Assembly (NCBI GenBank): GCA_903928565.1
Contig: CAIYRH010000007.1
Coordinates: 14,139 to 78,138 of the forward strand
Source of the DNA: Candidatus Staskawiczbacteria bacterium
Lineage (GTDB): Bacteria; Patescibacteriota; Minisyncoccia; Minisyncoccales; Staskawiczbacteraceae
Direction of reading: 5' to 3'
Length of the DNA: 64,000 nt
Both the position numbers and the translations under genes were made by a program. Of the stretch, positions 27,027 to 60,347 are shown in pieces. Numbering within the stretch: position 1 is the stretch's first letter; the number at the start of each line of letters is the position of its first letter. Below the pieces are notes generated by a model. The model did not search any database. It was not told the origin of the DNA and worked only from the letters and a program-made list of their open reading frames with translations.

Positions 27027-27043
27027 AGCGTTGGGTAAGTTTT

Positions 27044-27499
27044 AATTTCTAATTTTTAATTTATATTAAAGTTATATTTAGTTAAGTTTAATTTTATTAT
27101 CAAGCGTGTTTGTTGCTTTTTGGAAGATAAGATGGAATTCATGTGCTTCTTGCCATAACTTCATTATTTTTTCTTTATGTTCGGGGTGATAATTTGATAA
27201 TAATCTTAACCAATATTTTGTTTCATTCGCCTCTTTTTTAGAAATGTAAATTTTATTTCTAAAATCTTTTTTTGAGCTGGACGCATTTGCTTCATAGTAA
27301 TTTGCTCCTATTGATGTGGCTGCTCTAGCCAACTGACCGACTAAATTTTTATTAATATCATCTATTCTAAGTTTTTTTATAAAGTCTAAAATATCTTCTG
27401 AAAACTTCGCAGTTCTCTCTTCTAGGTTATATGTTTTATTATTTATAACTTCGTTCATTTTAAAATTTAATAGAAATTAGAAATTGAAAATTAGAAATT
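27044..27499 (-). mobile_element. Candidate insertion cassette 1: four-helix-bundle gene bracketed by a 19-bp inverted repeat made of stop-containing heptads
   Basis: 27044-27062 aatttctaatttttaattt versus 27481-27499 aaattgaaaattagaaatt (18/19 complementary). Heptads tagaaat/tagaaat/tgaaaat/tagaaat at 27471-27498. The cassette fills the gap between the PrgI-like stop (27499) and the 220-aa start (27026). Confidence 0.4.
27078..27458 (-). CDS. Four-helix-bundle protein (23S rRNA intervening-sequence protein family)
   Basis: LARAATSIGANYYEANASSSKKDFRNKIYISKKEANETKYWLRLL is the family core motif. 126 aa. Confidence 0.8.
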   Translation of the reverse strand: MNEVINNKTYNLEERTAKFSEDILDFIKKLRIDDINKNLVGQLARAATSIGANYYEANASSSKKDFRNKIYISKKEANETKYWLRLLSNYHPEHKEKIMKLWQEAHEFHLIFQKATNTLDNKIKLN

Positions 27500-27906
27500 C
27501 ACTTCGTCTTCAGGTCTATTAACGTTTTTGTTCTTTTTAATTGGCTTGTTTGCGCTTGTAAAACAGGACCCTGATCTATTTTTTTAATTTTAGTGCGGGA
27601 AATTGGTTTAAACGGATAAGGCGATTCTTTTTTCTTCCATGTGTAATTTTTACCTCCCATTGAAAACCCAATTGAGCCCAAAATAACATTTAAAATTGGC
27701 GTGCCATTTATTGTTCCAAATGCCAAAATTGCAGAAATAATAAAAAGTATTACAGACACTATATAAAAAACCGGTTTTGGTAAAAGGTAATATAAAAAGA
27801 AAGAAAGAATCCCCGCCCCCACCAAATAAAAGAATTGCCTAAATGATATAAAGAAAGCAATTTTACTTTCGGACTCAATAAATTGTGGAATAGGATATTG
27901 CTCCAT
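27499..27906 (-). CDS. PrgI-family / VirB3-like small T4SS membrane protein
   Basis: IPQFIESESKIAFFISFRQFFYLVGAGILSFFLYYLLP followed by a second TM helix. Size (135 aa) and position upstream of virB4 match Gram-positive PrgI/VirB3 analogs. Confidence 0.6.
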   Translation of the reverse strand: MEQYPIPQFIESESKIAFFISFRQFFYLVGAGILSFFLYYLLPKPVFYIVSVILFIISAILAFGTINGTPILNVILGSIGFSMGGKNYTWKKKESPYPFKPISRTKIKKIDQGPVLQAQTSQLKRTKTLIDLKTK

Positions 27907-27910
27907 GATT

Positions 27911-28378
27911 GTTGAATTAAGAGTTTTGAATTTTGAATTTCGATTAAAATTTGAATTTCTAATTTTAAAAATTTATTTCATAGATGAGATGATTTTTCCG
28001 AATATAAAAGTAAGTTCTTGAGTTTCGCGCCATAAAACTTCAGCTTCATTTTTTCTGCCAGGTTCGCATTCTGTTATCATCTTTAACCAATGCATTGTTT
28101 CTTGAGCTTCTTTTTTGCAAATAAATATTTTATTTTTGAAATCTTTTCTAGAACTTGCGGCATTTGCCTCCATGTAGTTTGCCCCAATACTCGTTGCAGA
28201 TCTAACTAACTGGTTTATTAGCGGCCTACTTATGTTGTCTTCCATAATGGTCCTACAAAATTTGATAGTGTTTCCGCCAAATCTCGAAGTTCTCTCTTCT
28301 AGGTCGTATTTATTGTTCATAAAATTTCGAAATTAAGTCATTTAAAATTTATTCGAAATTCGAAAATCAGAATTCAAC
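27911..28378 (-). mobile_element. Candidate insertion cassette 2: four-helix-bundle gene with imperfect inverted arms of tgaattt-type heptads
   Basis: The left arm starts gttgaatt (27911) and the right arm ends aattcaac (28378). tgaattt units at 27927, 27934 and 27952. The reverse complement of the right arm reads gttgaattctgattttcgaatttcgaataa. Confidence 0.35.
27973..28320 (-). CDS. Four-helix-bundle protein (same subfamily as 27078-27458)
   Basis: LVRSATSIGANYMEANAASSRKDFKNKIFICKKEAQETMHWLKMI. 115 aa. Confidence 0.8.
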   Translation of the reverse strand: MNNKYDLEERTSRFGGNTIKFCRTIMEDNISRPLINQLVRSATSIGANYMEANAASSRKDFKNKIFICKKEAQETMHWLKMITECEPGRKNEAEVLWRETQELTFIFGKIISSMK

Positions 28379-28453
28379 ATTATTTTATTATACCATAATA
28401 ATTATTAGTAGATACAAGCGTTATTCACATGTGCAATGCGCAGGGCCAAAGTA

Positions 28454-30596: not shown

Positions 30597-33077
30597 TTAT
30601 CTTCTTGGATGGTTTCTCTCAAAATCGGCTCCTGGCGGAATTATTATTCTTGGGCCTTCTGGCGCCGGTGTGGCATTGCCGCCACCTCCTCCTTCGCCTC
30701 GTGTGTCGTCGTTTTTTCTTACTCTTCTCGTCGCTTCTTTCATGGCGTTAAAGCGTTCAACAGCTTTTTCTTGAGCTACGGCGTCACCATGCTGGAGCTC
30801 TCTTAGGTGGTCATTAAAAGCATTTGTAAATGCAGCCACTTTTTCATCATTTCCATTTCTAAGCAAGTTTGTCATTTGGTTGGTGCCAGCGTATTTAGCA
30901 AATGTAGGCATAGCTTCTTTTGGTAATTCCAAAACTTTATCCGTTGGCATTTTCTTAATGGCTTTTTCAATTCTTTCCTCACCCAACTTTTCTTTTCTCT
31001 TTATAATGTCTTCAGATTTAATGTTATTTCCAAAAGTGACAATTTGTTTTGCCACAGCTTCTTTAGACATACCCGAAGTCGCCAGCCTTTCTTCTTCTTT
31101 ATCCATTATGCTTCTCTTCGCCTCGGCATCGGAAACTGGGGCAGTTATTCCTAGGGCGCCCTCTATAGTTCTTCGGTGTCTTATCGTTCGGCTAGCATTT
31201 TCCATGTCGGTAGCTGTAACTCCTTCCCCTTTCATAGAATGTTTAGCTATTTTGATTGCTCCTTTTTCAGATATGCCTTCTCCAACCTTTTTATCGATGC
31301 GTTCTTTCAATATATGTGTCATTATTTCTTCCTTTGATGGAGTAGCTCCTGCTGTTGGGCTGGCTTTTCCTAATAATTCTTTTGAAACACCAAATGATTT
31401 AGCATAAGCAATAGCTTCTTCTCGTTTTGTTGAATCAATGGCGCTAAGAGCATTCCTCTTGGCTAATATTTGCACTGCCGAGGCTTTTTCTGCTGCTTTT
31501 GCGGCGGTTAATGGTTTCTGTGCAGCAATTTTACCAAGCACTTCGTTGTCTTGAATTGCGTCTAATTTAGCCAAAGGATCTTTCATTCGGGCAGCCTGGT
31601 TAGAAGCAGTTGTGCCTTGCGGGACAATACGAATTCCTGTTGCCATACCAAATTTTTCTGCTGCATTAGTAGCAAAATCTTTTACTTTTTGTCCGCCCCT
31701 TTGTGCGGCTCCGGCTACCCCTGTTAATTTTGCAGCTCCCGTGAGCCCCCCCATTGCTAACATTGCTCCGCCAGAAACTAGCCCAATGGCAGCGGTGCTC
31801 GCCATTTTTGCAATGCCGGTTTTTTGTGAAGTCATTTTAAACCCTACAACTAAAAATCCTAATACAATAACAACTTGAGTTATTAACTGTCCGGCATTTG
31901 GCGTTGTGGTAGACGGCGAAGATAAAGTAGCAATTGGCTGATTCAAAAGGCTTTGTGTAGTCATTACAGTGGCGGCAAGCCACAAAACAAACGAACCAAT
32001 TACGCCAATGAAGACCCATTTTAAAAAGTGGCCCCACCACTCTGTCCATAAATGTCTTGAAGCCGGGAAAACCCAAAAAGTAAATGCCAAGGGCGACAAA
32101 ATATATAACATTATTAAAATTACATATCTTGCCAATAAAATAAAAAGTAAATAAAAATAAGTAAAAGCAATTCCCAAATAAACCACTCCGAACATAGCAC
32201 ACAAGGTTACATAATTAAAAATACCCGATGCTGCGAGATCATTAGTAAGTAAAGTTTTTGTGGCAATTTGTAGGCGGAATAAAAGAATGGCCGGGCCACC
32301 AATTACTGGTATTGTGGCAGCTGCTGTCTGTCCTGCTCCTTGTAGCCCCATTCCAGAAAAGGAACTTGTTATTAAATTTGCTGCATCTATTAGCAACCCG
32401 CAGAATAACCCAGAAAAATTAATTGCTAAAGCAACTAATATTAAGGGCAGTAAAAGTTTTTTTGCTTCATACTCTCTAAGTCTTAAAGCAGTAGCAATGC
32501 CAACTACAACAAAACCCAAAACAATAAGCATGTTGCCCAAATTTCTTACTTGCGCCCAAGCTTTGGTAAAATCTGCACCACCGTTGGAACTTTGGTCTGT
32601 TGTTATTGGTGCACTTAAATAGTTAATTAAAATAAAGTTAAGTGAAGACATGGCTGAGCTGGCTATCATATATGGGCCATCAACTAAAACATCACCAATT
32701 AAACCGCCAAGCCATTTAAACCCTATGCCCTCGTCAAATGGTGGGTCTTGGAGCCTTGTGTTTTCAGCCGTACTTTCATAGGCCTTTTGTGCAGCAGCGG
32801 TTCCAGTGCCAGGCCCACAAAAAGACATAATCCATTCCTGAGCATTGGCGACGGTATTTCTACTATTGAATATTTTTCCCACTGCTAATGAAAGGTCTAC
32901 AAAACCACGGGCTACCGAACTTCCAGCTGCATTGAGCATGCCCTGATTATTCCATTGCGTGCACCAAGGAGCTAACCCGTGTGCTACAACTGGAGATAAA
33001 AATCCTATAGATAGCGCAAGTAAAAAGGTAAAAGCAGTTAGTTTCTTATGTGCTAAAAATTTAGAGAATAAATTCAT
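30597..33077 (-). CDS. VirB6/TrbL-like polytopic T4SS membrane protein with a long hydrophilic C-terminal extension
   Basis: Signal peptide, then a periplasmic segment, then at least 7 hydrophobic helices (FTKAWAQVRNLGNMLIVLGFVVVGIATAL...LILVALAINFSGLFCGLLIDAANLI is TrbL-like). A ~370-aa Ala/Lys/Glu-rich tail ends in GEGGGGGN. Confidence 0.6.
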   Translation of the reverse strand: MNLFSKFLAHKKLTAFTFLLALSIGFLSPVVAHGLAPWCTQWNNQGMLNAAGSSVARGFVDLSLAVGKIFNSRNTVANAQEWIMSFCGPGTGTAAAQKAYESTAENTRLQDPPFDEGIGFKWLGGLIGDVLVDGPYMIASSAMSSLNFILINYLSAPITTDQSSNGGADFTKAWAQVRNLGNMLIVLGFVVVGIATALRLREYEAKKLLLPLILVALAINFSGLFCGLLIDAANLITSSFSGMGLQGAGQTAAATIPVIGGPAILLFRLQIATKTLLTNDLAASGIFNYVTLCAMFGVVYLGIAFTYFYLLFILLARYVILIMLYILSPLAFTFWVFPASRHLWTEWWGHFLKWVFIGVIGSFVLWLAATVMTTQSLLNQPIATLSSPSTTTPNAGQLITQVVIVLGFLVVGFKMTSQKTGIAKMASTAAIGLVSGGAMLAMGGLTGAAKLTGVAGAAQRGGQKVKDFATNAAEKFGMATGIRIVPQGTTASNQAARMKDPLAKLDAIQDNEVLGKIAAQKPLTAAKAAEKASAVQILAKRNALSAIDSTKREEAIAYAKSFGVSKELLGKASPTAGATPSKEEIMTHILKERIDKKVGEGISEKGAIKIAKHSMKGEGVTATDMENASRTIRHRRTIEGALGITAPVSDAEAKRSIMDKEEERLATSGMSKEAVAKQIVTFGNNIKSEDIIKRKEKLGEERIEKAIKKMPTDKVLELPKEAMPTFAKYAGTNQMTNLLRNGNDEKVAAFTNAFNDHLRELQHGDAVAQEKAVERFNAMKEATRRVRKNDDTRGEGGGGGNATPAPEGPRIIIPPGADFERNHPRR

Positions 33078-33079
33078 AT

Positions 33080-33097
33080 TAGTTTGTAGTGAGTAGT
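33080..33097 (+). repeat. Solo copy of the tagtttg-type heptad repeat
   Basis: tagtttg tagtgag tagt, 3 nt upstream of the VirB6-like start codon. Confidence 0.6.
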
Positions 33098-33161
33098 ATT
33101 AAATTGTTTTATTTTACACCATCTAAACTTTTAAAGGTAGTCAAGTTATTCACACATTTAC

Positions 33162-33663
33162 TAGTTTGTAGTTTGTAGTTGGTAGTGAGTAGACGAAAAG
33201 CTAATCTCGCTAATTAATCTTTTAGTTCGTGAGTCAATTTATTTAACATGCGCATTATCTCAGATAATAAGTTTTCAATTTTTTGATAATCTTCGGCTTT
33301 CCCAAATTTCAGTCGTTTTGCAATTTCTATTTGAGTTTCTAATTCCGCGCCAGATCCATAAGCAGTTAAAAGGAAGTTTCTAAAATCTTTTCTTGAACTG
33401 CGTCGGCTTCCCTCGGCGATATTAGAAGGGATAGAAACCGAGGCTCTACACATTTGAGAAGTTAATCCATAAATTTCTTCTTTTGGGAAATTTCCAGTTA
33501 ATTTATAAACTAGAACAACTAAATCCATTGCCTTTTGCCACACAATTAGATTTCCATAAGATTCTATTCCCATATATTTGATTTTAATATTTTCTACAAA
33601 CTACTCACTCTTTCTACAAACTATTATCCTTTCTACAAACTACAAACTACTCACTACAAACTA
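33162..33663 (-). mobile_element. Candidate insertion cassette 3: four-helix-bundle gene bracketed by inverted tagtttg-type heptad arrays
   Basis: Left arm 33162-33192: tagtttg tagtttg tagttgg tagtgag tag. Right arm 33594-33663 has the reverse-complement words (ctacaaactactcact, ctacaaacta, ctacaaactacaaactactcactacaaacta). TAG codons fall in all three frames on the inward-reading strand of each arm. Confidence 0.4.
33214..33573 (-). CDS. Four-helix-bundle protein (classical 23S rRNA-IVS protein type)
   Basis: YGLTSQMCRASVSIPSNIAEGSRRSSRKDFRNFLLTAYGSGAELETQIEIAKRL. 119 aa. Confidence 0.8.
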   Translation of the reverse strand: MGIESYGNLIVWQKAMDLVVLVYKLTGNFPKEEIYGLTSQMCRASVSIPSNIAEGSRRSSRKDFRNFLLTAYGSGAELETQIEIAKRLKFGKAEDYQKIENLLSEIMRMLNKLTHELKD

Positions 33664-34473
33664 TCTGTAAGGTTTTTCCAGTCTTCAATGCTCAATGTTT
33701 GGGCGCGTTGGGTTGGTTGAATATTATTTTTTAGAAGCCATTCTTCAACTTTTGTTTTTTCTAGTTTTAATATTTTTGATAAATTCCCCCCAAGCTGTTT
33801 TCTTGGTTGTGAAAAACCAGCTTTAACTATTTTAAAGAATTTATCGGGAGAAGTCAGACCTCCTGTCGGGCGAAAGGTTTGACTTCGGGGAGTAATTTTT
33901 ATTATTGCAGAATCAATTTTTGGTGCTGGCCAAAAACAATTTTTTGAAACATAACTTATAATTTTTGGCGTTGCATAAAATTGCACAGAAACGGCCAACA
34001 AGTTCATGTCCCCCACCGTTGCACAAATTCTTTGTGCCACTTCTTTTTGAATCATTAAAATTATTTCTTGCGGTGGATTGGGGTGCCCTTCGGGCCGTTC
34101 TAAAAATTTTCTAATTAACGGTGAAGTTAAATAATAAGGAATGTTTGCTATTAGTTTGTAGTTTGTAGTGAGTAGTGGGTAGTCTGCAAGATTAATTTTT
34201 AAAATCCTTAATAGTTTCTTTTAAAATTGTTTGCATTGCCGAACTTTTTTCAACAGCAATAATTTTTTTTGCACGGCTTGCTAATTCTTTTGTTAAAACT
34301 CCAATGCCCGGCCCCACTTCTAAAATTGTGTCTGTTTTTTTTATGTCGCCCGCTTCAACTATTTTTCTTAAAACATTTTCATCTATTAAGAAATTTTGCC
34401 CCAAACCTTTTGAAGCGCGTGTTTCATATTTTTTGAGAAGCTCTTTTATTATTGTTGGAGAAGTTAAATTCAT
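33654..34473 (-). pseudogene. rsmA: 16S rRNA (adenine1518/1519-N6)-dimethyltransferase RsmA/KsgA, split by a frameshift
   Basis: ORF 34192-34473 carries the SAM motif (LGQNFLIDENVL, ILEVGPGIGVLT). The next frame (+1) continues ...NLADYPLLTTNYKLIANIPYYLTSPLIRKFLE...MIQKEVAQR to 33654. The frame break is at the A-run/TAA at 34192-34200, next to an embedded heptad repeat (34152-34183). Confidence 0.6.
34152..34183 (+). repeat. tagtttg-type heptad repeat embedded inside rsmA
   Basis: tagtttg tagtttg tagtgag tagtggg tagt. Read on the coding (minus) strand it encodes DYPLLTTNYKL. Confidence 0.6.
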
Positions 34474-41195: not shown

Positions 41196-41227
41196 AAAAA
41201 TCCGAGGCAAACCTCGGATTTTTTTTA
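41196..41227. terminator. Bidirectional intrinsic terminator
   Basis: aaaaa-TCCGAGG-caaa-CCTCGGA-tttttttt, between convergent genes. Confidence 0.65.
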
Positions 41228-41231
41228 CAAA

Positions 41232-41255
41232 CTACTCACTACCAACTACAAACTA
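41232..41255 (-). repeat. Solo tagtttg-type heptad repeat; exact 24-nt inverted copy of 33169-33192
   Basis: The reverse complement of 41232-41255 is tagtttgtagttggtagtgagtag, identical to 33169-33192. Its first TAG (41253-41255) is the stop codon of the DksA/TraR-like gene. Confidence 0.7.
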
Positions 41256-41609
41256 TTTGTCGCACTTCAAGCAAGTTTTTGCCTCGGGGCAAGCAAGCAA
41301 TCTTTCTTCGTCTATTTTTTTTCCGCAGTTTTCGCAAACGCCATAAGTCCCTTTTTCTATTTTTTCTAAAGCACTAACTACGTCTTTTAATTTTGATTCC
41401 AAGCTATATTCTAAAGATAATTTATTGTTGTATTCTTGGACTTCATCGGCTTCTTCGTCTTTGTCGCCCTCTTCCCTATTTGGGTATTTGGTATCCCAGT
41501 TATTTTTTAAGTTGGGGTCTTCTTTTGCAAAACTTTCTAGCTCACCTTGAATAGATTTTTTTTGTTCTTCAAGTTTTTCTTTTAATTCATCTAATAACTT
41601 TTTTTCCAT
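41253..41609 (-). CDS. DksA/TraR-family C4 zinc-finger protein
   Basis: Coiled-coil N-terminus plus GTYGVCENCGKKIDEERLLACPEAKTCLKC. Confidence 0.8.
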   Translation of the reverse strand: MEKKLLDELKEKLEEQKKSIQGELESFAKEDPNLKNNWDTKYPNREEGDKDEEADEVQEYNNKLSLEYSLESKLKDVVSALEKIEKGTYGVCENCGKKIDEERLLACPEAKTCLKCDK

Positions 41610-51966: not shown

Positions 51967-52037
51967 CGGCGCATCGTATAGTGGTAGTATGCAGACTTCG
52001 GGAGTCTGCGGTCTCAGTTCGATTCTGAGTGCGCCGA
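51967..52037 (+). tRNA. tRNA-Pro (anticodon CGG)
   Basis: Acceptor CGGCGCA/TGCGCCG, anticodon arm CAGAC-TTCGGGA-GTCTG, T arm CTCAG-TTCGATT-CTGAG. The D-arm pairing is less regular. Confidence 0.75.
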
Positions 52038-52043
52038 ATTTAT

Positions 52044-52071
52044 TGAAAATTAAAAATTGAAAATTTAAAAT
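52044..52071 (+). repeat. Heptad stop-codon repeat in the tRNA-Pro/tRNA-Ala spacer
   Basis: tgaaaat taaaaat tgaaaat ttaaaat. Stops at 52044, 52051 and 52058 fall in three different frames. Same word family as the cassette-1 arms. Confidence 0.6.
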
Positions 52072-52100
52072 TCCACTTTTGCAAAAGCAAAATGTGGCTT

Positions 52101-52171
52101 GGGCCTGTAGTAAAGTGGTATTACGCCTCGTTCGCAACGAGGAAGCGGCAGTCCGATTCTGCCCAGGTCCA
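52101..52171 (+). tRNA. tRNA-Ala (anticodon CGC)
   Basis: GGGCCTG-TA-GTAA-AGTGGTA-TTAC-G-CCTCG-TTCGCAA-CGAGG-AAGC-GGCAG-TCCGATT-CTGCC-CAGGTCC-A. The G3:U70 identity pair is present. Confidence 0.85.
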
Positions 52172-52230
52172 CTATTCAATTTTTAAAGTAATTTTAATGA
52201 TTGATAAGTATAATTAATTAAAAATTAAGA

Positions 52231-57796: not shown

Positions 57797-57824
57797 ACCG
57801 CTTAGGCGGTAGCGCTTAAGCGGT
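57797..57824. repeat. Two adjacent copies of the 14-bp palindrome family (ACCGCTTAGGCGGT, AGCGCTTAAGCGGT) directly upstream of comM
   Basis: They end 12 nt before the comM ATG (57836). Confidence 0.8.
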
Positions 57825-59559: not shown

Positions 59560-60245
59560 GTTTCTTCGGTTTCTGAGAAGTTTCCATCTTCAAACCTAAT
59601 CCCCTCTTGTGACTCGCCAAAAGGCGGGTCTTTTTTTGGCGCGTGAAGTTGCTTTTGAAGATAATTAATTTGAGACACTAACAACTGTTTTGTATTTCTT
59701 GCGTCGCCAATTACCTTTTCTATTATGCCCTGCATAAATTTTTCTCTTTCTATTAGTTCGTTATCTTTGGCCTTATAGTCGCCAAGCAGGGACTCGTATT
59801 TTTTAATCCAATCCTTTTTCTCGGCCCGGTCTTCTTTTAAGAGTTCTAAAAACTCTCGGTCAATGGCTACCTGATTATCCGCTAAGGCAGATTCGCTTAG
59901 GCGGTTAAGTTCGGCTTGCGAGGGTGCTTCTGGCGGGACCGCATAAGCGGTACCGCTTAAGCGGTCTGGGGTACCGCTTAAGCGGTTTTGGCTGTTTTCG
60001 TCGGACCGCTTAAGCGGTTCCGCATAAGCGGTTTCTTTGGCCACGGCGTCCAGTTCTTTTACCCAAAAATCTTCTTTCAAAAGAATGATATTTCCAACCC
60101 CTTTGTCGTGCCTTTCGCTTAAATTCCCCTCTAATTTTTGGGGTTCTACCAGTTTATACTTTCGAATTCTTCTTCTAATTCTAATGTCGGCAACATCATA
60201 TTTTTGAATAAATTCTTGTATGGTTAGGAAGTCATTATTGTTCAT
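59544..60245 (-). CDS. Hypothetical DNA-binding-like protein whose gene carries six copies of the 14-bp palindrome
   Basis: 233 aa. The N-terminus FLTIQEFIQKYDVADIRIRRRIRKY looks HTH-like. The central segment is encoded by the palindromes (PLKRS / NRLSGT / DRLSGT). Coiled-coil C-terminus. Confidence 0.5.
   Translation of the reverse strand: MNNNDFLTIQEFIQKYDVADIRIRRRIRKYKLVEPQKLEGNLSERHDKGVGNIILLKEDFWVKELDAVAKETAYAEPLKRSDENSQNRLSGTPDRLSGTAYAVPPEAPSQAELNRLSESALADNQVAIDREFLELLKEDRAEKKDWIKKYESLLGDYKAKDNELIEREKFMQGIIEKVIGDARNTKQLLVSQINYLQKQLHAPKKDPPFGESQEGIRFEDGNFSETEETKKGA
59892..60032. repeat. Intragenic array of six 14-bp palindromes (consensus ACCGCTTAAGCGGT)
   Basis: Copies start at 59892, 59938, 59952, 59973, 60005 and 60019. 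Layout from 59938: pair, 7 nt, single, 18 nt, pair. Confidence 0.85.
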
Positions 60246-60264: not shown

Positions 60265-60347
60265 ACCGCTTAAGCGGTACCGCTTAAGCGGTGGGGGTAC
60301 CGCTTAAGCGCTTTTGGTGACCGCTTAAGCGGTATCGCTTAAGCGGT
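60265..60347. repeat. Upstream array of five 14-bp palindromes (consensus ACCGCTTAAGCGGT)
   Basis: Copies start at 60265, 60279, 60299, 60320 and 60334. Layout: pair, 6 nt, single, 7 nt, pair. Located between the predicted promoter and the start codon of the 233-aa gene. Confidence 0.85.

Follow-up and report, generated by a model that had tools for sequence, protein, structure and literature searches.

Intervening sequences (IVSs) with an open reading frame (ORF) for an S23p protein occur in the 23S rRNA genes of Leptospira, Coxiella burnetii, Brucella and Haemophilus, and PF05635/TIGR02436 genes, which encode proteins of this type, have been noticed in rRNA genes, cas operons and restriction operons without explanation. 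In diversity-generating retroelements (DGRs) a distantly related protein, Avd, binds both nucleic acid and reverse transcriptase. Heptanucleotide tandem repeats have been catalogued since 1990, with no function assigned. Gene and repeats occur together in a 64,000-nucleotide (nt) stretch of contig CAIYRH010000007.1 from a Candidatus Staskawiczbacteria bacterium (the window, i.e. the whole stretch of DNA analysed, to which the coordinates below refer). There a minus-strand gene for a PF05635/TIGR02436 four-helix-bundle protein (33214-33573) lies between inverted arrays of TAG-containing heptamers, forming a cassette that, from alignment with cassette-free relatives, is an insertion into the last codons of rsmA. 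The unit of gene and arms is conserved and under purifying selection, and is found in many unrelated genomic contexts.

The 23S rRNA IVS of Coxiella is excised by RNase III and carries tandem GACAGAT heptamers just before the S23p start; their copy number differs between strains and each junction gives TGA (PMC4990558). S23p has been described as a homopentameric toroid, and IVS elements, of which ORF-less versions are known, are regarded as selfish and horizontally moving (PMC4990558). ORFs of the 23S_rRNA_IVP type are also scattered over rRNA insertion sites in bacteria of the candidate phyla radiation (CPR) (PMC11270868) and occur inside cas operons (PMC3936711). As to the repeats, TAACTGA arrays give stops in all frames in one direction, are translatable in the other and abut start codons (PMC4679880), and convergent inverted pairs are common among the GGGAATC repeats of Xanthomonas (PMC4692102). 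According to work cited by PMC4679880 and PMC4692102, the long simple repeats of many genomes are most often heptanucleotide repeats, an abundance ascribed to polymerase slippage. One Xanthomonas campestris array, GGGAATC x4 at 622956-622983, lies between bccP (XCC0517) and XCC0516, over the start of the latter (PMC4692102 supplementary file 2, repeat no. 15); the authors make no comment on its position beside XCC0516 (PMC4692102). XCC0516 is the crystallised PF05635 protein, the gene for which appears to sit inside the accB-accC region.

The cassette in the window, with a small array outside it, comprises the following features.

33162-33656, minus strand: whole inserted cassette, 495 nt, made up of 5′ arm, leader, ORF and inner 3′ arm, as delimited by in-silico excision.

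33633-33663, minus strand: 5′ arm, sense TAGTTTG TAGTGAG TAGTTTG TAGTTTG TAG; period 7 and 4.4 copies by Tandem Repeats Finder (TRF), a five-unit chain.

33591-33632, minus strand: leader from the arm to the ATG, in which the arm end TAGTTTGTAGAAAG recurs twice more, forming a 19-20-nt repeat (TRF; direct-repeat family D2).

33214-33573, minus strand: gene for a PF05635/TIGR02436 four-helix-bundle protein, 119 residues, assigned by profile matches to the S23p family of 23S rRNA intervening sequences.

33162-33192, minus strand: inner 3′ arm, sense CTACTCA CTACCAA CTACAAA CTACAAA CTA (TRF; inverted repeat I1).

33080-33097, minus strand: outer 3′ mini-array ACTACTCACTACAAACTA, with 2 nt between it and the ATG of the TrbL/VirB6-like gene downstream (inverted repeat I4).

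The assignment of the protein to its family is clear-cut, with essentially the full length of the profile covered: the Pfam PF05635 (23S_rRNA_IVP) match has E 6.4e-41 and 139.3 bits (cut-off 33.8), residues 8-112 of 119 aligning to profile positions 2-106 of 106, and the match to TIGR02436 ('four helix bundle protein') scores 133.5 bits (cut-off 24). The nearest solved relative is XCC0516 (PDB 2GSC, E 4e-26); the closest solved homologues, 2GSC and 2RLD, the homology being by sequence only, have five chains per entry. At least 8000 homologues were scored, those with names all being from Patescibacteria, and an exact look-up of the 119-residue sequence returned no record. A DGR reading of the gene was rejected: the protein reaches just 29.6 bits against the cut-off of 80 of the Avd equivalog NF033474, and no reverse transcriptase domain and no template/variable repeat pair was found among the neighbours (rsmA, the TrbL-like gene and a PKD-domain protein). 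A preliminary description of the window, made from its letters alone, had placed the gene in a different subfamily from the two other PF05635 genes present (27078-27458 and 27973-28320), in agreement with the local identity of 23-48% between their products. Those two genes, of cassettes 1 and 2, flank a PrgI-like gene (27499-27906) in a type IV secretion-like locus (window 27036-28380); their arms are 80% complementary over 35 nt and 76% complementary over 54 nt, respectively, such that three PF05635 cassettes lie within 7 kb of one operon region.

The arms of the present cassette are both highly regular and capable of pairing. Beyond the 5′ arm, TRF reports period 7 at 33162-33186/33192, and a period of 19 (2.7 copies, score 78) at 33591-33643, i.e. 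in the leader. The arms (33162-33193 and 33632-33663) are complementary over 32 nt at 84%, as the inverted period-7 arrangement in the preliminary description would have it, and their duplex is predicted at -33.4 kcal/mol, compared with -12.5 +/- 3.0 in shuffled controls (z = -7). In minimum free energy and centroid folds of the sense RNA the arms are paired (z = -2.6), and in a fold of 33070-33675, which includes the outer array, the 5′ arm is paired over its full 31 nt (z = -3.5). The insert is thus predicted, from folds and duplex, to be closed by its flanking inverted repeats into a long stem, as in IVSs. The outer mini-array matches the outermost 18 nt of the 5′ arm (33646-33663) with 100% complementarity and a duplex energy of -27.1 kcal/mol; it had been placed 3 nt from the VirB6-like start, a distance corrected here to 2 nt (ATG at 33077). 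Read outward, the inner 3′ arm is free of stops, and on the opposite strand it has TAG in all frames. That TAG falls in all three frames, as had been pointed out, is correct as an observation and trivial as a property, being an arithmetic consequence of period 7.

Such arrays are also rare in the surrounding DNA. With up to one mismatch allowed, 16 occurrences of the word TAGTTTGTAG were counted where 4.4 are expected, and five TAG/CTA chains (at least 3 units at spacing 7-8) are present in the window, all of one word family; in dinucleotide-shuffled sequence the numbers are 0.78 for chains of at least 3 units and 0.02 for those of at least 4. The arrays are therefore no general property of intergenic DNA here, and the possibility, raised in the preliminary description, that they are ubiquitous between genes is removed. 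With five chains of 3-5 units, as well as the TRF matches, they qualify as heptanucleotide tandem repeats in the usual sense of at least 3 head-to-tail 7-nt units. Scans for sigma-70 promoter and intrinsic terminator consensus sequences around the cassette gave nothing convincing in or at the arms; a conserved TTGACT...TGTAAAAT block has a spacer of 22 nt, and the scan calls no sigma-70 promoter there. Rfam searches of 26.5-42 kb (E up to 1) returned chance-level matches only, with no known RNA family and no rRNA. Two other origins of the arrays were considered and dropped, i.e. telomere-like or templated unit addition, since units within one array differ, and accumulated target duplications, since the arms are inverted, not direct.

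The site of insertion can be reconstructed from the host genes and the native sequence that the cassette has displaced.

33654-34473, minus strand: rsmA, 16S rRNA adenine dimethyltransferase, the cassette host; Pfam RrnaAD on both of its parts.

33098-33161, minus strand: displaced native sequence, comprising the last rsmA codons (gta aat gtg tga) and a conserved intergenic block ATAACTTGACTACCTT...GGTGTAAAAT; alignment with L096, L098, L128, L148 and L160.

30597-33077, minus strand: TrbL/VirB6-like gene, 826 residues, the downstream host gene; similarity to an L001 protein.

The TrbL/VirB6-like protein has no Pfam match of its own and is 32% identical over 346 residues (E 1e-41) to a PF19590 TrbL_3 protein of L001. 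It is encoded on the minus strand, as are rsmA and the four-helix-bundle gene. In relatives the conserved block ATAACTTGACTACCTTGAA...GGTGTAAAAT follows directly after rsmA; in the window it lies on the far side of the cassette (33161-33098). Deletion of 33162-33656 in silico gives ...aca gat agt ttg/gta aat gtg tga (the stroke marking the join), an intact rsmA end reading TDSLVNV and a stop, and the joined sequence (33657 to 33161) is colinear with the cassette-free relatives L127, L128, L096 and L160. The restored gene end and the colinearity with empty sites together identify a 495-nt insertion. It has cost rsmA its last three codons, the present stop being TAG 33654-33656, the first TAG of the insert; the preliminary description had given this role to the last heptad of the arm, and the stop does lie in that arm, in the second unit from the outer end. 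As judged by alignment, the outermost unit (33657-33663) was probably already present before the insertion, as the native end of rsmA, and many empty sites end ...AATAGTTT(G/T)..., one unit-like word. No target-site duplication is visible at the cassette junctions, and no transposase was found in this cassette or next to the cassettes examined.

The rsmA gene itself is split into two ORFs, 34192-34473 and 33654-34055 (the latter extending upstream in frame), by a single frameshift near 34190-34200, as seen in the three-frame translation and on aligning the gene with rsmA of L015 and L001. The frameshift lies in an A/T run just upstream of an in-frame heptad array, and sequencing error, a pseudogene and real frameshifting are all possible.

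The occupancy of the site was surveyed in 80 metagenome relatives of rsmA, 57-73% identical, of which 68 had enough downstream flank. A cassette is present in one (L097), arrays without a gene are present in two (L126 and L130, the latter as an ORF-less TAG...CTA hairpin), and the remaining 65 have nothing at the rsmA end; presence/absence polymorphism at this site, envisaged in the preliminary description, is thus apparent. A further relative with a short flank, outside the 68 (L150), has an array remnant there. L128 is syntenic, with rsmA, the conserved block and a gene whose product begins MDFFSKIF... (MNLFSKFL... in the window), without the cassette and without the 18-nt outer array. In L015 (2860-3540, the same as in L016) a cassette is flanked by two extra rsmA 3′ ends, KNNLKPTQRAETLSVKDWIKLVGSL and ...NQRAETLSIKDWKNLADSLQAQ, each followed by a stop; an intact rsmA lies 1 kb upstream, and AbiEii and HepT/MNT toxin-antitoxin genes are interleaved. 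This layout, on comparison of the sequences, suggests that cassettes have been copied together with pieces of a former target.

Conservation of the unit was examined in 80 species-representative genomes with homologues of 57-84% identity, almost all from Patescibacteria, of which 75 loci had an intact ORF and adequate flanks. The ORF is intact in 77 of 80 and broken in three. An upstream TAG array is present in 65 of the 75 loci, a downstream CTA array likewise in 65, and both in 60; the wrong orientation was seen once per side. The unit consensus is TAG[GCT]T[TA]G, with words that vary between loci (TAGCTTG, TAGGTTG, TAGGAAT, TAGTAAG and others), 159 intervals between units measure 7 nt and 83 measure 8 nt, and the number of units per arm peaks sharply at 4-5, the mode being 5. 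The two arms of one locus match over ~34 nt at 84%, better than arms of other loci, both by Smith-Waterman complementarity (mean 35 within a locus, 20.8 between loci) and by duplex energy (median -35 kcal/mol over the 75 loci, compared with -23 for cross-locus pairs; p = 9e-10). Compared with shuffles, the arm duplex has a median z of -4.7 and is better in 73% of loci. In all fetched loci the TAG-to-CTA inner distance is bimodal, with 67 cases at 350-450 nt, which contain the ORF, and eight ORF-less cases at 10-70 nt; the reverse, CTA-to-TAG, arrangement is rare.

In five groups of loci at orthologous sites, TAG columns are 92% identical and spacers 75%, compared with 29-71% for third codon positions and 67-92% for the proteins. 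With arms more alike than third codon positions, and proteins well kept, both arms and protein are under purifying selection, TAG most strongly. The genomic setting is likewise consistent. At 57 loci the upstream neighbour is co-oriented and at three it is divergent; for the downstream neighbour the counts are 60 co-oriented and 10 convergent. A median of 42 nt separates the ATG from the stop of the upstream gene, and a median of 28 nt lies between the cassette's own stop and the start that follows. The stop of the upstream gene is TAG in 41 of 57 cases, compared with a background of 23% (p = 4e-15). Co-orientation, TAG stops and the lack of promoter or terminator consensus sequences together point to a promoterless module in host operons, the arm of which routinely supplies the stop of the host gene.

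The arrangement is not limited to Patescibacteria. A tblastn search of plasmids gave matches in 31 records, mostly from Nostocales, and at almost all of the 18 loci inspected period-7 arrays lie on both sides of the gene, usually inverted, e.g. in the following cases.

Nostoc edaphicum: GTAGGGA x8 upstream, CCCTACT x5 downstream; between nrdB and nrdA.

Calothrix: GGGTGTA upstream, CTACACC downstream.

Anabaena 90: ACAGGTG upstream, TGTCACC downstream; between cas6 and cas4.

Nostoc C052, N. punctiforme and Aulosira: TCAGGAG upstream, CTGACTC downstream.

Geminocystis: AAAAGGG upstream, CCCTTTT downstream.

Azospirillum: GGACAGA-type unit upstream, complementary unit downstream.

A homologue in Gemmatirosa also has flanking heptamer arrays, and in at least five phyla inverted arrays of unrelated words go with PF05635 genes. 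In a conserved Nostoc plasmid operon a cassette lies upstream of a 288-nt gene (WP_104899637) in L187 and L194; in L196, from a third strain, a cassette with a different protein and different arm words lies downstream of the same gene. Phages do not stand out as a vehicle, tblastn having given no match in 50,697 phage records and four loci only in IMG/VR.

These comparisons bear on the preliminary description in a mixed manner. One architecture with different words, as it proposed for the window, is found in all three window cassettes, in 60 of the 75 homologue loci and in Cyanobacteria, Azospirillum and Gemmatirosa. Its view that selection on the architecture, rather than common descent of the arms, accounts for the pattern is borne out insofar as the architecture is kept across unrelated words and phyla, but within a subfamily the words descend with the gene: homologues 76-87% identical have TAGTTTG, TAGTGAG and TAGTTGG words on both sides, in contexts with rsmA (L001, L015) or a pilin gene (L005) upstream, and thus common descent of the arms is real at that level. 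A stop in every unit holds in this subfamily and in some others, and is absent in relatives of cassettes 1 and 2, so that it cannot be maintained as a general principle.

Beyond what had been described previously, arrays of the same words also occur alone in the window.

34152-34182, plus strand: solo five-unit array, same words, inside the rsmA coding region; five-unit chain.

41225-41255, minus strand: solo array, same words, between convergent genes; TRF and chain scan.

The first of these is read by rsmA without a stop, as DYPLLTTNYKL, in a variable loop before ANIPYY. An in-frame rsmA array is also present in L001 and in about 12 of the 80 rsmA relatives, others having different heptad words in the same place, and the native NYKL codons (AACTACAAACTA) already hold a 10-mer of the array. 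The array overwrites part of the conserved DILKL motif (as DYPLL). Across L096-L175, L001:130-178 and L015:1340-1400, the RsmA loop from the DIL motif to YKVVANIPYY is made from in-frame heptad arrays in many Patescibacteria, with peptides that differ by locus (NYSLLTTNYKL, NFKLISNFKFQISNYK, ENCKLKIENYK, SYKLKAISYK), the loop being a hotspot that tolerates arrays inside a protein. At the second site, the last TAG of the array (41253-41255) is the stop of a dksA/traR-type zinc-finger gene (41253-41609), and a terminator-like hairpin (41198-41227; tccgagg-caaa-cctcgga and a T run) adjoins the array.

Some related observations may be recorded here. ORF-less TAG...CTA hairpins are present at L058:2132-2228, L130:3037-3140, L160:855-949 and L053:2659-2738, and often enclose a short GC-rich stem and a T run, giving a terminator-like appearance (L058, cagcgga...tccgctgtttt; L130, cgcgaa...ttcgcg). 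An AT-rich period-7 array of ATTGAAA/ATTAAAA (4.4 copies, 52042-52072) lies between the genes for tRNA-Pro (51967-52037) and tRNA-Ala (52101-52172), and its words resemble those of the right arm of cassette 1 (TGAAAAT/TAGAAAT). Apart from the heptads, and unrelated to them, a 14-nt palindrome, ACCGCTTAAGCGGT, occurs 12 times against 0.12 expected, in clusters at 57797-57824, 59938-60032 and 60265-60347 that surround a small minus-strand ORF (~60040-60245), with the look of an array of operator or partition sites.

The explanation that is, on balance, somewhat favoured is that the cassette is an IVS-type selfish element that lives in an operon rather than in rRNA, and consists of a promoterless PF05635 gene bracketed by ~31-nt inverted TAG-heptamer arrays. 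It would owe its transcription to read-through from the host operon. Incoming ribosomes would be stopped by the upstream arm in whatever frame the insertion had made, and the mirror arm would do the same for the other strand, thereby making insertion at gene ends harmless. The arms would pair, in the transcript or in single-stranded DNA, into a stem of ~31 bp, with the entire insert looped out and the upstream stop placed beside the downstream start; RNase III may then cut the stem, as it does in the 23S rRNA IVS. Slippage of units would turn the arrays over, producing lineage-specific words with retention of TAG, the 7-8-nt period and about five units. That the insertion site already had a unit-like word, TAGTTTG, suggests that integration may be guided by homology.

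Several observations weigh against this proposal. With respect to mobility, the cassette has no recombinase, no target-site duplication and no near-identical copies within a genome, and one insertion may account for the copies found next to rsmA. With respect to pairing, mismatches between arms comprise 52 that are G.U-compatible in the sense strand and 63 in the antisense strand, i.e. there is no excess and no signature of selection on RNA pairing specifically; 247 of 362 mismatches are transversions, and the differences look like whole-word swaps (TTTG, TGAG and TTGG), which is as expected if the arrays turn over by unit slippage. RNase III processing is proposed here by analogy. With respect to translation, relatives of cassettes 1 and 2 have stop-free arms (CACGAAA, CCAAATT, ACAAATT), with the orientation of base composition reversed, the CA-rich arm being upstream, and several cyanobacterial arms are stop-free too. 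CTA is kept as strictly as TAG even though the downstream neighbour is co-oriented at 60 of 75 loci, and so stop function alone does not explain both arms. The solo arrays, in rsmA and at 41225, have no partner arm.

It may be, although we regard it as unlikely, that the arrays are instead binding sites for the cassette's own protein, a ring-forming homopentamer engaging one heptamer per subunit, five units for five subunits; binding could serve autoregulation or assembly of a ribonucleoprotein, and solo arrays, at gene ends, in 5′ leaders and even within rsmA, would be targets in a small post-transcriptional or DNA-level network. The strong purifying selection on the protein and the nucleic acid and reverse transcriptase binding of its distant relative Avd are consistent with such a role, as is the equal conservation of TAG and CTA in both arms, beyond the needs of pairing; with spacer words differing within one arm, however, at most TAG and the spacing could be read. 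The peak at 4-5 units per arm agrees with the five chains per entry in 2GSC and 2RLD, and with the toroid described for S23p (PMC4990558), but could instead reflect a requirement on stem length. The words of the solo arrays in the window are in every case those of this cassette, a similarity that can arise by copying, and ORF-less hairpins and solo arrays are equally well explained as decay products. A quite improbable alternative takes the arms as DNA-level terminal inverted repeats of a non-autonomous transposable cassette, akin to MITEs (miniature transposable elements with inverted repeats) or repetitive extragenic palindromic (REP) sequences, moved as a single-stranded hairpin or by a recombinase or transposase encoded elsewhere, with the stops and the RNA stem as by-products. 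Matching of terminal repeats at the DNA level would fit the lack of G.U bias, the element is found with and without its ORF, its presence at rsmA varies among relatives, adjacent spacers of one Nostoc operon hold different cassettes (L187 and L194 compared with L196), and in L015 the cassette lies between copies of the rsmA 3′ end. However, tandem-heptamer arms are unlike known transposon ends, neither target-site duplications nor near-identical copies were found, nor was a transposase in or beside the cassettes examined, and the co-orientation ratios of 57:3 and 60:10 point to dependence on host transcription, an effect that selection after insertion could mimic.

That the arrays have no function, being slippage-generated heptamers that hitch-hike with the gene, TAG an inherited accident of the ancestral unit, is very improbable and, from sequence comparison, disfavoured. 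Heptamers would on this view be the repeat length most prone to slippage, to which their abundance is ascribed in work that PMC4679880 and PMC4692102 cite, the mismatches between arms resemble whole-word swaps, and native rsmA segments (AACTACAAACTA, coding for NYKL, and GATAGTTTGTAG, coding for DSL and the stop) hold 1.4 units and are potential seeds. By contrast, the arms are far more conserved than synonymous positions, with TAG above the spacers, the rule of TAG upstream and CTA downstream is almost without exception, the number of units is tight, and inverted heptamer arrays, their words unrelated, are found with this one protein family in at least five phyla; elsewhere in the window arrays are rare. 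A wider proposal, which is possible if tentative, is that PF05635 proteins are the protein partner of bacterial heptanucleotide arrays in general, including short tandemly repeated repetitive (STRR) sequences, GGGAATC repeats, the TAG heptads of Patescibacteria and the heptamers of the Coxiella IVS. A five-subunit ring would read about five units, the nested gene would be the 'autonomous' copy, and solo arrays and ORF-less hairpins would be non-autonomous relatives or regulatory targets. Were this so, the rRNA intervening sequences would be just the best-known special case of a selfish or regulatory system that spans phyla.

PF05635/TIGR02436, with many members in Patescibacteria and Cyanobacteria, is among the commonest unexplained small bacterial protein families. 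Its gene and the repeats form one conserved inserted unit, with inverted arms of about five units each and often a stop per unit, giving a common testable frame for two puzzles, the PF05635 family and the 7-base repeats. The arrays supply host stops, sit in 5′ leaders and, as in rsmA, can be read through within genes, all of which affects the calling of genes and pseudogenes in CPR genomes. No published description of PF05635 genes between inverted heptamer arrays was found in the full-text literature, subscription journals being partly covered, and the design, which combines an IVS/S23p element with heptanucleotide repeats and is conserved across phyla, appears to be undescribed so far.

The overall resemblance to the rRNA IVSs lies in the shared PF05635/TIGR02436 protein family and in an ORF placed in the loop of a long inverted-repeat stem. 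By contrast with the rRNA IVSs, the window cassette is not in an rRNA helix but in a protein-coding operon, in the last codons of rsmA, and its arms consist wholly of TAG heptamers that double as host stops; compared with the Coxiella IVS, where the ORF is decaying, the ORF is well conserved in the cassette family. Avd (PF22296 bAvd, NF033474), which is pentameric and nucleic-acid-binding, has a distantly related four-helix-bundle fold, but the window protein falls far below the equivalog cut-off. Integron cassettes and MITE/REP elements are similar in being small, promoterless, co-oriented inserts that lie between genes, with or without an ORF, and with imperfect inverted repeats that can fold when single-stranded. 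However, the annotated neighbours include no integrase, attI or attC, and no transposase, REP-associated tyrosine transposase (RAYT) or target duplication was seen nearby; further, the window element is a single cassette with two tandem-heptamer arms per gene, not one attC. Omega-type interposons have symmetrical ends that stop translation from either side in any frame, but are artificial and thus a conceptual analogue only. The heptanucleotide repeats, i.e. cyanobacterial STRR sequences, the TAACTGA repeats of Beggiatoaceae, Cyanobacteria and Bacteroidetes, and the GGGAATC repeats of Xanthomonas, share the period of 7, the intergenic location and the small number of units, and arrays of the TAACTGA type also overlap upstream stop codons, occur within ORFs when reversed and often end 1-2 nt before a start. 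The papers describing them treat them as stand-alone sequences, with their role unexplained and no link to PF05635; the arrays in the window, by contrast, form inverted pairs around a PF05635 gene, accompanied by solo arrays that carry its words.

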